Positions 10,534 through 45,502 of a stretch of 52,022 nucleotides of DNA are shown here, piece by piece. The first letter of the stretch is position 1. Every line of letters starts with the position of its first letter. This DNA comes from a bacterium. Lineage in GTDB: Bacteria > Patescibacteriota > Minisyncoccia > Phycocordibacterales > UBA9973. The notes beneath the pieces are model-generated. The model ran no database searches. It worked only from the letters and a program-made list of their open reading frames with translations, and was not told the origin of the DNA. A program made the position numbers and the translations under genes. The stretch covers positions 1 through 52,022 of the forward strand of contig JAIXRY010000003.1 in the NCBI GenBank assembly GCA_027484965.1. Direction: 5' to 3'.

Positions 10534-10944
10534 TTAATTATATAAAAGCGAGGTGTGTAGCCAAGGGCTAGAGAGGAAATATCCTATAGTAACTCCTAGG
10601 AGGTATTGCCAACTATTTCTTAAAATATTTCTAGATCTATCTTGATACTGCTGACGATTATGCGTAACATGTTCAGCAAAAGTAAGACCTAAAAGCCACA
10701 GAATTAGAAGATAGAAAGATATTTCAAATATTGGAACCGAAAACTTGAATAAAAAATATCCGATAGCAATTCCAATAATCACTTGCCAGGCATTTCTCCA
10801 AATTCTAGCAACAACATCCCCCGTTCCGTTCCAATAATTCTGACCATTACGAAACAAAAGAGAAATAAAGAGTCCAAGAATCCAGAAGGTGAAAATTATC
10901 ATTAAGATAGTTTCTAATCCGTTTGAGTTTTTTATGAGGTTCAT
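10534..10944 (-). CDS. Hypothetical 4-TM membrane protein with an internal duplication
   Basis: Two halves share RIWRNAWQVIIGIAIGYFL and NILRNSWQYLLGVTIGYFL. No family recognised. Confidence 0.5.
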   Translation of the reverse strand: MNLIKNSNGLETILMIIFTFWILGLFISLLFRNGQNYWNGTGDVVARIWRNAWQVIIGIAIGYFLFKFSVPIFEISFYLLILWLLGLTFAEHVTHNRQQYQDRSRNILRNSWQYLLGVTIGYFLSSPWLHTSLLYN

Positions 10945-10959
10945 AATATAAGGGTTTAA

Positions 10960-10996
10960 TTGTGATCAAAAAGGACATTATCCCCTTTGATCACAA
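10960..10996. other. Long inverted repeat TTGTGATCAAAAAGG/ACATTAT/CCCCTTTGATCACAA in the 5' region of the 10534-10944 gene
   Basis: Stem of about 14 bp read directly. No U-tract follows on the minus strand, so it is not a classical terminator. Confidence 0.4.
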
Positions 10997-11092
10997 CGAA
11001 ACTTTTATGAACCAGATTCAAAGAACTATATACATATTATATACTATTTAAAGATATTTGTCAATAGCATAAATAGATAGGCATTAAACAGC

Positions 11093-11131
11093 AAAAAGAC
11101 CTGGAAAAGCAAAACTTTTCCAGGTCTTTTT
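11093..11131. terminator. Intrinsic terminator (17-bp stem AAAAAGACCTGGAAAAG/CAAAA/CTTTTCCAGGTCTTTTT)
   Basis: Read directly; lies downstream of the 11150-11512 gene. Confidence 0.75.
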
Positions 11132-11149
11132 ATTTTTTATAAATTTTAA

Positions 11150-11512
11150 TTAAGCATTATCTATATCTGCTTTAATTTTATCTATTGCAGAATCTTCAAT
11201 AACAGTATCCAAAACAGAAACGACAGCTTCCAAATCATTCAATTCCTTCTCTACCAAATCCATATCTTCTTTTAGATCCTTTTCTACAGCATCCAATTCT
11301 TCAGACATTTCTTTTGTTGAAGATTCAATCTCTTGCGCATCTTCTGCAGTAAGAATATCAGTGTCAGATTCTATATCAATTTGGATAAGGTCTTTTATTT
11401 GCTCTTTTAATTCTGGAGTGAATTCCCCTTCCAAAAGAGTTAAAATTTCTTCTTTGTGAGCTTCACTAAGTGCACTTGCTTTTACTTTTTCAATAAAATC
11501 TTGTTTATTCAT
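11150..11512 (-). CDS. Hypothetical highly acidic helical protein
   Basis: Clean 120-aa ORF rich in Glu/Asp, tightly coupled to the upstream gene. No family recognised. Confidence 0.5.
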   Translation of the reverse strand: MNKQDFIEKVKASALSEAHKEEILTLLEGEFTPELKEQIKDLIQIDIESDTDILTAEDAQEIESSTKEMSEELDAVEKDLKEDMDLVEKELNDLEAVVSVLDTVIEDSAIDKIKADIDNA

Positions 11513-11523
11513 AAATATAATAG

Positions 11524-12390
11524 TTAAGCGGCTATTGATAACGCGTCAGTAAGTTCCATTTTACTAATCAAAGCTTCTTTTTGCTTTCTAAGATTTTCAG
11601 CCTTTTGCATAGCGCTAGATTCCTTATCTGCAATCTTTTGAATTTCAGCTTCTAAGCGACGCATACGAAGCATGTTCATACTCTTGCGATGATTTTCTTT
11701 AATTTTAGCAACTCTTTCTTGGGCAGATAGAATTGCATTTTCACTAAAAGATTTAACACTTTCATATTTATTCTTAACTCCTTCTTTTGCAGTTTGGAGA
11801 CCTTCAACAGTTTTTTCTTTTGCGTAAAAAGCAGCGTCTTTAGAAAGATTTGCCGTATCCTTTGCAAATTGAGAAATTTGCTCTCCTTTATTTACAACAA
11901 ATTTTTCTACAGAATCATAACCTCTATCCATAGCATCATACCCTTTTACGAGCATGTCACCTGTAGATGAGACTAATTCTGCTCCAGCTCTACCAATATT
12001 TTTTCCTGTAATATTTGCACCCTTATCTGTCCATTCATCAAATTCTTTTACTTTTTCTACTGAATAATCATATCCTTGCTTTGCAAAAACGTCAGACATT
12101 GCAGCACCAGCAACAATATTACCTGTAACTTTTTTTGTATTATTCCAAAAACGTCCAAGCTTTGATGCAAGAGCATTGCCTTTTTTTGCAACAATTTCTT
12201 TAACTTGAGATATCTTTTCACCAACAAGAGCTAAACGTTCACGTCCAACAGCAAGAGGATCCTCTTGTGTATTATTCAACTCAACATTTTCAGCTGATTC
12301 TTGATTTAACTCTTCTACACTCTTAGCTTCTGCAGGTATTGAAACCTCAGGCACCTCTTTTTTACCAAAACTAAATAGTCCCATATACAT
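11524..12390 (-). CDS. Hypothetical coiled-coil / amphipathic-helix-repeat protein
   Basis: 288-aa ORF with Lys/Glu/Ala-rich helical repeats. No family recognised. Confidence 0.5.
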   Translation of the reverse strand: MYMGLFSFGKKEVPEVSIPAEAKSVEELNQESAENVELNNTQEDPLAVGRERLALVGEKISQVKEIVAKKGNALASKLGRFWNNTKKVTGNIVAGAAMSDVFAKQGYDYSVEKVKEFDEWTDKGANITGKNIGRAGAELVSSTGDMLVKGYDAMDRGYDSVEKFVVNKGEQISQFAKDTANLSKDAAFYAKEKTVEGLQTAKEGVKNKYESVKSFSENAILSAQERVAKIKENHRKSMNMLRMRRLEAEIQKIADKESSAMQKAENLRKQKEALISKMELTDALSIAA

Positions 12391-12475
12391 TAATTTAATA
12401 AGAATAAATTTTCCCGACTGTAATAAATTATATAGCTTATACCAATAAAGTAAAGAAATTTAAAGGTATTAATAC

Positions 12476-12504
12476 TTGATATAGACAATATATAGGTGTA
12501 AAAT
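12476..12504 (+). promoter_or_regulatory. Promoter of the thrS leader (TTGATA-17-TAAAAT)
   Basis: Hexamers at 12476-12481 and 12499-12504. The ATG of the leader ORF follows 7 nt later. Confidence 0.55.
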
Positions 12505-12511
12505 AGTATTA

Positions 12512-12589
12512 ATGTCACACATTTTTACAAAAACAACCACAACAACCTTTACTCGATGTCGAGAAAGGCTTGTCTTGGTAATTTCGTAA
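12512..12589 (+). CDS. Thr-rich leader peptide MSHIFTKTTTTTFTRCRERLVLVIS
   Basis: 25-codon ORF translated by hand. 7 of 9 consecutive codons (12527-12553) are Thr. It overlaps alternative RNA pairings and precedes a terminator. Confidence 0.6.
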   Translation: MSHIFTKTTTTTFTRCRERLVLVIS

Positions 12590-12645
12590 GAATCTCCACA
12601 AAGCCAAACCCTTCTCGATATCAAAAAGAGAAGGTTTTTTATTTT
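12546..12645 (+). promoter_or_regulatory. Attenuator: segments 1 (12546-12556), 2 (12559-12568), 3 (12609-12618) and 4 (12628-12634), plus a U-tract
   Basis: 1:2 pairs CCTTTACTCGA with TCGAGAAAGG. 2:3 pairs TCGAGAAAGG with CCCTTCTCGA. 3:4 pairs CCTTCTC with GAGAAGG and is followed by TTTTTTATTTT. Confidence 0.6.
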
Positions 12646-12697
12646 ACCAACACATCAAAAAATGAACATTTTTTAAGGTTACCTAACAGCATAAATA

Positions 12698-12706
12698 TGC
12701 TACAAT
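12698..12706 (+). promoter_or_regulatory. Extended -10 box TGCTACAAT, 6 nt upstream of the thrS ATG
   Basis: Read directly. Same geometry as at several other first genes in this window. Confidence 0.4.
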
Positions 12707-12712
12707 TCCCAT

Positions 12713-14464
12713 ATGCAACAAGAAAACATTGAACATATTCGTCATTCACTTGCCCACCTCTTAGCGGCAGCGGTTTTAAAGCATTTTCCAGACACTAATC
12801 CAACTCTTGGGCCTGCAATTGAAAATGGTTTTTATTATGACTTCGAATTCCAAAACCCTCTAAAAGAAAGTGATTTGGAAAAGATAGAAAATACAATGCG
12901 AGAACTCCTCCCTACTTGGAATACTTTTGCTTGTGAAGAAGTTTCTTATGAAAAAGCAAAGAAGGTTTTTGCTGGTAATAAATACAAGTTGGAACTCATA
13001 GAAGAAATAGAAGCAAAAGGTGAAGCAATCACTTTCTATACTTCTGGAGAATTTACCGATCTTTGTCGTGGAGGTCATGTAGAAGATATGAAAAATATTC
13101 CTAGCGATTGTTTTAAATTAGACAGTCTTGCTGGAGCGTACTGGCGCGGAAGTGAAAAAAATAAAATGCTTACTCGTATTTATGGACTTGCATTTTCTAC
13201 AAAAAAAGAACTCGGTGAATACGTAACAATGCAAGCAGAAGCAGAAAAGCGTGACCACAGAAAAATAGGTCCCGCTCTAAAACTTTTTACTATTTCACAA
13301 CTCGTAGGTTCTGGACTACCACTCTTCCAACCAAAAGGAACTATTTTGCGTAAAGAATTAGAAAATTACCTATGGGACCTACATAAAGACAAAGGATATG
13401 ATCGTGTATGGACACCTCATTTAGCAAAAGAGGATTTGTACAAAGTGTCAGGTCATGCAGGACATTATCTAGATGATATGTTCTCTGTTCATGGAGGAAC
13501 TTCAAAAGAAGATTTTTATGTGAAGCCAATGAACTGTCCTCATCACATGCAAATTTTTGCAGACAATCAATTCTCTTATAGAGATATGCCTGTGCGCTAT
13601 TTCGAACCAGCAACAGTTTATCGTGATGAAAAAACAGGTCAACTATCAGGACTAACTCGCGTACGCGCTCTTACACAAGATGATGGTCACCTTTTCTGTA
13701 GAGTAAGTCAAATAGAAAATGAAATTGCAACAATAGTTGGAATTATCAAAGACTTCTACACTACAATGGGAATGATGGAAGGATACTGGGTAAGACTATC
13801 TGTTCGTGGAGATGACAAAGAAAACTATCTAGGTGAAGATAGTGTTTGGGAAACAGCAGAATCAGCTTTAAAAAATGTTTGTGATTCAGAAAAATTGAAT
13901 TACAGAGTTGGAAAAGGAGAAGCTGCATTTTATGGACCAAAACTAGACTTTATGTTCAAAGACGCTATCGGAAGAGAATGGCAATTAGCAACAGTTCAAT
14001 GTGACTTTAATCTTCCAAAAAGATTTGAACTTTCTTTTATAAATGAAAAAGGAGAAAAAGAACAACCTGTTGTCATACATAGAGCAATATCTGGATCTTT
14101 GGAAAGATTTATAGGGGTTGCAATAGAACATTTTGGCGGTGCATTCCCTACATGGCTTTCACCTGTACAAGTTGCAATTATTCCTGTATCTGAAAAACAC
14201 CTAGATTATGCACACACAGTAAAACATCTTCTTTCTGGATTTTCTATTAGGACAGAATCATTTAATGGAAATGATTCTCTAGGAAAACGCATACGCGAAG
14301 CAAAAATGAATAAAATTCCTTACATTCTTGTAATTGGCGACAAAGAAATTGCAGACAATTCTGTAACGGTAGAGAAACGTGGAAGTGAAGAAAAAGGGAT
14401 TTCTTTACCAATAAATGATTTTGTAACAAAGATAACAAATGAAATCAAAAACAGAAGTCTCTAA
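12713..14464 (+). CDS. thrS: Threonyl-tRNA synthetase lacking the N-terminal TGS domain
   Basis: Starts at the editing-domain HxxxH motif (IRHSLAHLLAAAV) and has CRGGHV. Class II core (FYVKPMNCPHHMQIF, RVRALTQDDGHLF, GSLERFIG) and a C-terminal anticodon-binding domain. Confidence 0.95.
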   Translation: MQQENIEHIRHSLAHLLAAAVLKHFPDTNPTLGPAIENGFYYDFEFQNPLKESDLEKIENTMRELLPTWNTFACEEVSYEKAKKVFAGNKYKLELIEEIEAKGEAITFYTSGEFTDLCRGGHVEDMKNIPSDCFKLDSLAGAYWRGSEKNKMLTRIYGLAFSTKKELGEYVTMQAEAEKRDHRKIGPALKLFTISQLVGSGLPLFQPKGTILRKELENYLWDLHKDKGYDRVWTPHLAKEDLYKVSGHAGHYLDDMFSVHGGTSKEDFYVKPMNCPHHMQIFADNQFSYRDMPVRYFEPATVYRDEKTGQLSGLTRVRALTQDDGHLFCRVSQIENEIATIVGIIKDFYTTMGMMEGYWVRLSVRGDDKENYLGEDSVWETAESALKNVCDSEKLNYRVGKGEAAFYGPKLDFMFKDAIGREWQLATVQCDFNLPKRFELSFINEKGEKEQPVVIHRAISGSLERFIGVAIEHFGGAFPTWLSPVQVAIIPVSEKHLDYAHTVKHLLSGFSIRTESFNGNDSLGKRIREAKMNKIPYILVIGDKEIADNSVTVEKRGSEEKGISLPINDFVTKITNEIKNRSL

Positions 14465-14630
14465 AACAAAAGACACTCGGAAACAAAAACATTTTGTTTC
14501 AATAGAAAAACTTAGTCACTTTCGATGTGGATCATGTGATAAGTGGTGGAGTATTGGAGATTTCGATAAAACAAAAATAAAAGAATTATTTTGTCCTTGG
14601 TGTGGATTGAAAAGCAGTGTGAGAAAATAA
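14439..14630 (+). CDS. Small basic zinc-ribbon protein (CxxC...CxxC)
   Basis: CGSCDKWW...CPWCG. Overlaps the thrS 3' end by 26 nt in another frame and is followed by a terminator. Confidence 0.45.
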   Translation: MKSKTEVSKTKDTRKQKHFVSIEKLSHFRCGSCDKWWSIGDFDKTKIKELFCPWCGLKSSVRK

Positions 14631-45145: not shown

Positions 45146-45162
45146 AAGCATTCCTTAATTTG

Positions 45163-45249
45163 CGGAGGATGTGAGATTCGAACTCACGGGCCGAATTACC
45201 AGCCGACGGTTTAGTAAACCGTTGATTTAAACCACTCATCCAATCCTCC
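45163..45249 (-). tRNA. Type II (long variable arm) Ser-like tRNA with anticodon ACU (hand fold)
   Basis: Acceptor GGAGGAT/ATCCTCC, D-stem GAT/ATC, anticodon arm ACGGT-TTACTAA-ACCGT, long variable arm, T-arm GTGAG-TTCGAAT-CTCAC, discriminator G. No encoded CCA. Confidence 0.7.
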
Positions 45250-45341
45250 GTATATTTAAATATTATAAAGATAATAACATAAAATTAATACAAAATAAAC
45301 CTTATAAAATTATTATAAAATGTGCTATATTTTAACGTATT

Positions 45342-45428
45342 GGAGCCGTGTCAGAGCGGTCTAACGTACCTCTTTGCTAAAGAGGCAGGGTGTAAAAAAC
45401 CTCGGGAGTTCGAATCTCCCCGGCTCCG
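45342..45428 (+). tRNA. tRNA-Ser (anticodon GCU), type II; the D-stem pairs poorly in my fold
   Basis: Acceptor GGAGCCG/CGGCTCC, anticodon arm CCTCT-TTGCTAA-AGAGG, long variable arm, T-arm GGGAG-TTCGAAT-CTCCC, discriminator G. Confidence 0.8.
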
Positions 45429-45502
45429 CAATTTAAAAATAATACAATATAGATTCTAAATAATGGTCCAAGCGTTAGACTAAAAGTAATGCAAAAAAAT
45501 TA

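Follow-up and report, generated by a model that had tools for sequence, protein, structure and literature searches.

The 52,022-nucleotide (nt) stretch of DNA from an uncultured patescibacterium analyzed here in its entirety (contig JAIXRY010000003.1 of assembly GCA_027484965.1; hereafter referred to as the window) carries a short, threonine-codon-rich open reading frame (ORF) directly upstream of thrS, the gene for threonyl-tRNA synthetase (ThrRS). This leader ORF is preceded by a promoter, P1, and is followed by RNA segments that can fold either into an intrinsic terminator or into a competing antiterminator. We regard it as reasonably likely that the element is a transcription attenuator of the ribosome-mediated (leader-peptide) type, responding to charged tRNA-Thr and controlling read-through from P1 into thrS, and we consider it probably functional.

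The Patescibacteria, or Candidate Phyla Radiation (CPR), possess tiny genomes and are mostly unable to make amino acids; to our knowledge, almost nothing has been learned about gene regulation in these bacteria. The homologues of the ThrRS protein encoded in the window stem from Patescibacteria, and they carry the names Paceibacterota or Nomurabacteria in their sources. A divergent intergenic region of 322 nt separates thrS from a minus-strand gene at positions 11524-12390, and the features considered in the following are located within this region or adjoin it.

12476-12504, plus strand: promoter P1, with the -35 element TTGATA (12476-12481), a 17-nt spacer and the -10 element TAAAAT (12499-12504); 10 of 12 matches in the promoter scan
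12512-12589, plus strand: leader ORF of 25 codons, from ATG 12512 to the stop codon at 12587-12589, encoding the peptide MSHIFTKTTTTTFTRCRERLVLVIS
12521-12593, plus strand: long 1:2 hairpin (anti-antiterminator) of the predicted fold, -22.1 kcal/mol, with the apex CUCG-AUGU-CGAG at 12552-12563
12527-12553, plus strand: regulatory codon run, seven Thr codons in nine (four ACA, two ACC, one ACT), from the sequence and a random-sequence test
12555-12568, plus strand: segment 2, the 5' arm of the antiterminator, GAUGUCGAGAAAGG, from the pair list and a shuffle test
12609-12622, plus strand: segment 3, the 3' arm of the antiterminator, overlapping the 5' arm of the terminator and the first 6 nt of its loop, from constrained folds
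12610-12634, plus strand: predicted terminator hairpin, CCTTCTC (12610-12616) paired with GAGAAGG (12628-12634), 7 base pairs (bp), 11-nt loop, -9.9 kcal/mol
12635-12645, plus strand: U-tract of the intrinsic terminator, TTTTTTATTTT
12698-12706, plus strand: proximal promoter P2, the extended -10 element TGCTACAAT, 6 nt before the thrS start codon at 12713
12713-14464, plus strand: thrS, threonine--tRNA ligase of 583 amino acids with the domains tRNA_SAD, tRNA-synt_2b and HGTP_anticodon

The leader ORF and its threonine codons

An original prediction, made from the letters of the window, had described a 25-codon ORF in which seven of nine consecutive codons specify Thr, a near-consensus promoter whose -10 element lies 7 nt in front of its ATG, an intrinsic terminator that shares segment 3, and an extended -10 element belonging to thrS itself. 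All of these elements were recovered, and every coordinate and sequence reported for them proved to be correct when checked against the window.

The Thr codons are found at positions 12527, 12533, 12536, 12539, 12542, 12545 and 12551. Seven Thr codons among nine, in any frame, occurred in just one of 300,000 random 322-nt sequences possessing the dinucleotide statistics of the window (P ~3e-6), and none of the six reading frames of the 52-kb window holds a denser one. That the codons of this run specify Thr, and that the run immediately precedes the only gene with Thr as its substrate, counts in favor of an attenuator. The leader ORF is also the sole short ATG-initiated ORF of the window with at least six of seven residues identical, these being Thr, and no other leader-type ORF was detected in the window, the region upstream of a pheS-like gene included. 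Among the Thr codons used by the genes of the window (ACA 232, ACT 201, ACC 23, ACG 18), ACC is rare (23 of 474); it is used twice in the leader, and both ACC codons fall within base pairs of the 1:2 hairpin.

Alternative hairpins and a predicted ribosome-dependent switch

The RNA corresponding to positions 12510-12650 is strongly structured, with a minimum free energy of -32.7 kcal/mol as compared with -17.4 +/- 3.0 kcal/mol in dinucleotide shuffles (z = -5.06; 0 of 200 shuffles as good). In its most stable fold, a long imperfect hairpin, whose 5' arm is the run of Thr codons, is followed by the terminator hairpin. The pairing originally proposed between a segment 1 (12546-12556) and a segment 2 (12559-12568) is present, but it constitutes only the tip of this longer hairpin, which pairs the Thr run as well. 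The proposed 2:3 antiterminator (12559-12568 with 12609-12618, nine of ten positions) likewise exists, but it is longer than envisioned: 11 contiguous pairs connect 12555-12565 with 12612-12622 and reach into the terminator loop, and these are followed by the pairing of 12567-12568 with 12609-12610 and by further pairs. When the upstream 54 nt were shuffled 20,000 times with their dinucleotides preserved and assessed against 12609-12627, an uninterrupted 2:3 helix of 11 bp arose in 0.1% of cases (P = 0.001).

Since the antiterminator pairs with six of its nucleotides, the unusually long 11-nt loop of the terminator finds a ready explanation. The same loop explains why the plus-strand terminator is missing from the list produced by a simple terminator scan, the rules of which allow loops of 3-8 nt. 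Use of the hairpin as a terminator on the minus strand was considered and rejected; that strand has no gene ending at this place and only a poor tail behind the hairpin.

A stalled ribosome was mimicked in silico by forbidding pairing in the 5' part of the transcript, and for each such mask the best structure containing the terminator was compared with the best structure in which 12612-12618 is paired upstream. Without any mask, the terminator is favored by 2.9 kcal/mol (-32.7 versus -29.8 kcal/mol). Masks ending at 12530-12555, which correspond approximately to the 3' edge of a ribosome with its A site on the Thr codons 12533-12542, favor the antiterminator by 0.4-5.2 kcal/mol, while masks ending at 12558-12564 favor the terminator by 3-9 kcal/mol. 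With footprint masks of this kind, the suggested comparison of 1:2 plus 3:4 against 2:3 yields the switch that had been proposed, and does so rather better than foreseen. The modeled geometry is that of a classical attenuator, in which a stall early or midway in the run would free segment 2, and either arrival of the ribosome at the stop codon or lack of translation would restore termination.

The locus hence contains a short ORF behind a promoter, a cluster of cognate codons, a terminator in front of the gene, and a mutually exclusive antiterminator together with a segment that sequesters it; that the position of the ribosome decides between the structures was found in silico only.

Promoters and the probable absence of a ribosome-binding site

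Shine-Dalgarno-like motifs are present at just two of the 47 window ORFs that encode at least 120 amino acids, and many of these genes exhibit a -10-like TAnnnT box 6-12 nt before the ATG. This arrangement suggests that leaderless or near-leaderless mRNAs are widespread in this genome. Both the leader ORF (TAAAAT, 7 nt, ATG) and thrS (TGCTACAAT, 6 nt, ATG) follow the usual layout, and the leader ORF has no Shine-Dalgarno sequence. Because the -10 element of P1 ends only 7 nt before ATG 12512, the leader transcript is probably leaderless or nearly so, and in a genome that is almost devoid of Shine-Dalgarno motifs and commonly uses the TAnnnT-to-ATG layout, the leader ORF would need no ribosome-binding site. 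For the same reason, thrS on a long read-through transcript would be in the position of any internal operon gene of this organism.

The TACAAT box of P2 is common to the window and to relatives that do not possess the leader. P2 is therefore ancestral, with the attenuator as an add-on upstream of it. Since thrS has kept this promoter and the attenuator sits in a strain-specific insert (see below), the element would control at most a part of thrS transcription.

A working model

In the model that we envision, the P1 transcript would begin at or beside the leader ATG and would be translated without a Shine-Dalgarno sequence, a mode that most genes of this organism appear to use. With Thr-tRNA in ample supply, the ribosome would pass the Thr codons and proceed to the stop codon at 12587, leaving segment 2 unavailable; when translation does not start at all, the long 1:2 hairpin would form and segment 2 would likewise be unavailable. 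In either situation, segment 3 would pair with segment 4, and RNA polymerase would terminate at the U-tract near position 12640. When Thr-tRNA is scarce, the ribosome would stall with its A site on one of the codons at 12533-12542, covering segment 1 but not segment 2. Segment 2 (12555-12568) could then pair with 12609-12622, no terminator would form, and transcription would run into thrS, such that read-through from P1 would add to the basal transcription provided by the ancestral P2. In this scheme, we infer the transcription start, translation of the leader, ribosome stalling, actual termination or read-through, and how P1 and P2 compare in strength.

Points against the attenuator and the strain-specific insert

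Several observations weigh against a working attenuator. The terminator hairpin is modest (7 bp, an 11-nt loop, -9.9 kcal/mol), small energy differences (0.4-5 kcal/mol) separate the alternative states, and a ribosome that came to a halt on either of the two final Thr codons (12545, 12551) would mask segment 2, which would favor termination. In part, the Thr run consists of a low-complexity repeat of the CAA type, so that slippage could have helped to create it; among the frames of this CAA-like repeat, the start codon opens the Thr frame only. The attenuator may furthermore add little to the output of P2, which lies 6 nt before the thrS ATG and is found in relatives without the leader as well. 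Finally, the leader ORF and its terminator are absent from all five of the closest relatives (loci L081-L084 and L165), and, with a single exception (locus L001), no such leader is present in approximately 160 other thrS loci that were sampled.

These loci were screened for Thr-rich upstream ORFs; they comprise 80 from genomes, found by ThrRS alignment, and 80 Paceibacteria-type loci from metagenomes, found by a clade-specific N-terminal motif, in each case among the matches listed, and they represent a sample and no census. None of the 80 Paceibacteria-type metagenomic loci among the matches listed possesses an ORF with a Thr run, and the one Paceibacteria relative among the matches listed in the genome scan (67% identity) has no leader either. 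Conservation of the leader in relatives, which the original prediction had named as a test, was hence not found, be it in the five close relatives, whose ThrRS proteins are 94-96% identical to that of the window (thrS ~91% at the nucleotide level), or in the ~80 Paceibacteria-type loci. With the element absent from the relatives and the sampled loci, a covariation test is impossible for the copy in the window. The only other copies are on two contigs from independent assemblies of other sequencing runs (L166, L167), which carry the inserted DNA and are 100% identical to the window over 12380-12760; an assembly chimera or artefact is thus ruled out and the arrangement is real, and, as copies from the same strain, these contigs offer no variation to compare.

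In the five close relatives, the gene order is rpmF, a gene for a small membrane protein, a short promoter region ending in ...TTTTGTAGTACAATTAAAGTCTATG, and thrS. Comparison with them delineates the following feature.

11069-12697, unstranded: strain-specific insert of ~1.65 kb with approximate borders

The insert contains a bidirectional terminator (11093-11131), two orphan genes on the minus strand (11150-11512 and 11524-12390) with their promoter, and the P1-leader-attenuator unit. The orphan genes encode an acidic, coiled-coil-like protein of 120 amino acids and a protein of 288 amino acids. The latter matched nothing but itself among 5.8 billion proteins, Pfam returned nothing above threshold for either of them, and a blastn search with 11041-12720 against 165 loci gave no match. 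More distant relatives have rpmF and thrS side by side in divergent orientation, and the insert is accordingly the derived state. The interval between the two genes is a variable hotspot in which relatives carry different genes for small membrane proteins. Judged from these comparisons, the element is a recent gain in the lineage of this strain and not ancestral to the clade.

The bidirectional terminator at the left end of the insert is strong, with a stem of 17-19 bp. Further to the left, a near-perfect 15-bp inverted repeat (TTGTGATCAAAAAGG...CCTTTGATCACAA, positions 10950-10997) is kept in the five close relatives; it lies between a minus-strand promoter with 12 of 12 matches (11064-11036) and the small membrane-protein gene at 10534-10944, and it could be a hairpin in the 5' untranslated region or an operator. 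On the other side of thrS, an ORF at 14439-14630 encoding a zinc-ribbon-like protein of 63 amino acids overlaps the 3' end of the gene by 26 nt. The DNA downstream of thrS varies among the close relatives, some of which have a pilin-like N_methyl gene at this place.

Alternative explanations

Location of the element in an insert next to two orphan genes, in an interval where rpmF and thrS originally adjoined, invites the suggestion that the unit arrived with 1.65 kb of foreign DNA, possibly from a donor in which it did regulate thrS, and is now an imported or decaying attenuator no longer wired to the gene. Transcription of thrS would then depend essentially on P2, whose ancestral TACAAT box fits the usual promoter-to-ATG layout of the genome, and the upstream unit would merely terminate. 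We consider this scenario to be unlikely. The ORF, the Thr run, the four segments and the U-tract are all intact and the energetics of the switch are balanced, which would be unexpected under neutral decay, and nothing between the terminator and thrS would block read-through. Moreover, the divergence of thrS from its relatives is even along the gene, so that there is no sign of a recently imported tract reaching into thrS; a recombination tract within thrS was rejected on the same grounds.

A complete promoter-ORF-terminator unit with a strongly structured transcript, co-acquired with orphan genes, could also represent a free-standing small gene, either for the 25-residue peptide or for a small RNA of ~130 nt, with its own promoter and terminator and a merely coincidental proximity to thrS. 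This explanation, to which we assign a low probability, leaves unaccounted for why the run should consist of Thr codons and stand beside thrS in particular, and why the region behind the run should be complementary over 11 bp to the arm and loop of the terminator. The peptide possesses neither homologues nor recognizable features, and no small-RNA family of Rfam was detected.

The control of thrS through a T-box in Firmicutes and through a ThrRS-binding operator in Escherichia coli, and the presence of short UGGU and UGU matches in the leader sequence, might point to a sensor of a ligand or protein, be it a T-box-like element reading uncharged tRNA-Thr (with ACC as specifier and UGGU 12575-12578 pairing with the 3' end of the tRNA) or a ThrRS-binding anticodon-arm mimic (the apical loop AUGU contains UGU), but we view this as very improbable, since no T-box match was found in 12300-12800 at E <= 10, the leader is too short for a Stem I, and the apical loop comprises 4 nt instead of the anticodon-like 7. 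At gathering thresholds, the only Rfam match in the whole window is a tRNA. With permissive filters (E <= 10), the segment 12300-12800 gave neither a T-box (RF00230) nor a Thr_leader match; there were only generic sub-threshold hits, such as the PyrR-site attenuator (20 bits against a threshold of 54 bits) and miRNA hairpins, and a tRNA scan detected no tRNA-like gene in the leader region. A T-box riboswitch, for which the conserved T-box sequence is lacking as well, and the enterobacterial Thr operon leader were rejected accordingly. An operator of the E. coli type is disfavored as well: loops of 4 and 11 nt are predicted, not of 7, and, being separated by more than 70 nt from the thrS ATG downstream, the structure cannot compete with ribosome binding in the way the E. 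coli operator does. Elsewhere in the window, two divergent tRNA-Ser genes are located at 45162-45429, with the anticodons ACT and GCT according to ARAGORN; only the minus-strand gene reached the Rfam gathering score, and an ACT anticodon would be unusual for Ser.

An independent threonine leader in Gracilibacteria

The exception in the wider screen is locus L001. In the scan that revealed the Gracilibacteria thrS loci, the best segment of their ThrRS was 54% identical to that of the window. The L001 record is labeled Peribacteria, and its thrS gene contains 11 in-frame TGA codons, which points to translation table 25 of the Gracilibacteria/Absconditabacteria type. Upstream of this thrS gene, a promoter-like site is followed by the ORF MLALLETTTTTLLGEIL and by a 12-bp terminator with a U-tract, and segments 2 and 3 are perfectly complementary over 11 bp (GAGAGAUUUUG / CAAAAUCUCUC). 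The element occurs at the same place in relatives with ThrRS proteins 89, 84, 81 and 79% identical to that of L001. Together, the set (L001, L168-L171, L174, L175) comprises five distinct sequences with ThrRS proteins that are 79-100% identical among themselves.

L001, 2866-2971: element with the leader ORF given above
L168, 1075-1183: element; leader peptide MLALLETSTTPTLTGGIL
L169, 1078-1183: element; leader peptide MLALLETSTTTTLNGGVL, shared by L169-L171
L174, 1067-1181: element; leader peptide MLAQLETTTPISLF
L175, 1062-1175: element; leader peptide MLAQLETTTITPLF

These leaders, of the type MLA(L/Q)LETTT..., contain three to five Thr residues and differ by an in-frame 3-nt indel, by synonymous changes in Glu and Thr codons, and by variant terminators; antiterminator helices of 9-12 bp are present in four of the five distinct loci, L001 counted. 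Gracilibacteria-type relatives at 73% ThrRS identity lack the element. RNAalifold, applied to the five sequences, found one compensatory pair and several G-U transitions along with register shifts, too little for a statistical claim. Because the covariation that five sequences can provide is weak, the support for this element rests on the conserved ORF, the Thr codons and the helices. The L001 element produced only sub-threshold matches in Rfam (PyrR, Phe_leader), and no Rfam family corresponds to the Gracilibacteria leader. On the basis of its conservation, the Thr leader of Gracilibacteria is evidently a selected element on thrS.

The presence of such a conserved element lends credibility to the copy in the window as a functional device. 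The Gracilibacteria leader shares with it the target thrS, the same logic, a run of Thr codons (three to five), a terminator with a U-tract, and, in four of the five distinct loci, an antiterminator. In contrast to the leader of the window, it is conserved in its clade, UGA is read as a sense codon (as the thrS gene of L001 shows), and with up to 12 bp it has a far stronger terminator. The two leaders have no sequence similarity, and the presence of this design on thrS elsewhere in the CPR points to a convergent origin.

A broader proposal, which is in our view somewhat doubtful, is that Thr-sensing attenuators arose independently on thrS at least twice in the CPR: once in Gracilibacteria, where the element is clade-conserved and UGA has a sense meaning, and once, very recently, in a strain of Paceibacteria, where it either came with the 1.65-kb orphan insert or took shape inside it, in front of an older promoter, and would work on a leaderless transcript without a Shine-Dalgarno sequence. 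If this were true, a classical coupling device would be quickly born and lost, and it would work in tiny symbiotic bacteria that cannot make amino acids. Should the attenuator of the window function as we suggest, Patescibacteria would monitor tRNA charging through the classical coupling of ribosome and RNA polymerase, on leaderless messages free of Shine-Dalgarno sequences, and devices of this type would be gained and lost within the time in which strains diverge and would appear repeatedly by convergence, as in the window and in Gracilibacteria. Since the mechanism is textbook knowledge, the gain lies in its distribution and evolution and not in its principle.

Comparison with known systems

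The novelty of an attenuator on a tRNA synthetase gene was overstated in the original prediction. Attenuators that rely on leader peptides are known for pheST of E. coli and for trpS and leuS of Streptomyces (PMC1262725), and a His leader-peptide attenuator precedes a hisS paralogue and hisZ in Bacillus (PMC2965389). In Streptomyces lividans, leaderless leader ORFs have been described upstream of leuS, trpS, alaS and thrS; the one proposed for thrS ('thrL') possesses two Thr codons and no clear terminator (PMC8079986). Several of the known leader-peptide attenuators of synthetase genes reside on leaderless transcripts (PMC1262725, PMC2965389, PMC8079986), and the case has been made for a repeated emergence of such attenuators and for their transfer from gene to gene (PMC2965389). 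In our literature search, no paper was found that joins the CPR with leader-peptide attenuation. A clear-cut thrS case would join the short list of synthetase genes that are controlled by a leader peptide and not by T-boxes or autoregulation.

The T-box of Firmicutes thrS genes and the ThrRS operator of E. coli have the gene and the signal (charging of tRNA-Thr or the level of ThrRS) in common with the element of the window, but the sensor differs: the window has neither a T-box motif nor an anticodon-arm mimic beside the start codon. The thrL leader of the E. coli thrABC operon (Thr_leader in Rfam) resembles it in its Thr-rich peptide and in the combination of terminator and antiterminator. 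However, thrL governs the biosynthesis of Thr, and its Thr codons are interspersed with Ile codons, whereas the leader of the window is directed at a synthetase gene and its run contains no Ile codons. The leader in front of the Bacillus hisS paralogue and hisZ is likewise a lineage-restricted attenuator on a synthetase-type gene, which in Bacillus replaces a T-box (PMC2965389), although the amino acid and the phylum are different.

Like the element of the window, the Streptomyces leaders (trpS, leuS, alaS, thrS) are short leaderless ORFs upstream of synthetase genes (PMC1262725, PMC8079986). Unlike the thrL leader of Streptomyces, with its two Thr codons and no clear terminator, the leader studied here, from a different phylum, combines seven Thr codons among nine with a canonical U-tract terminator and an explicit antiterminator. 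Another parallel is provided by pheM/pheST of E. coli, where an attenuator with a run of cognate codons and four segments capable of 1:2, 2:3 and 3:4 pairing precedes a synthetase gene; the two share no sequence kinship, and the leader of the window differs in sensing Thr instead of Phe, in being probably leaderless and free of a Shine-Dalgarno sequence, and in having a second promoter between the terminator and the gene. The mechanism is a known one, of which the element of the window offers a textbook-quality example; we are aware of no clear description of it for this gene and this phylum.

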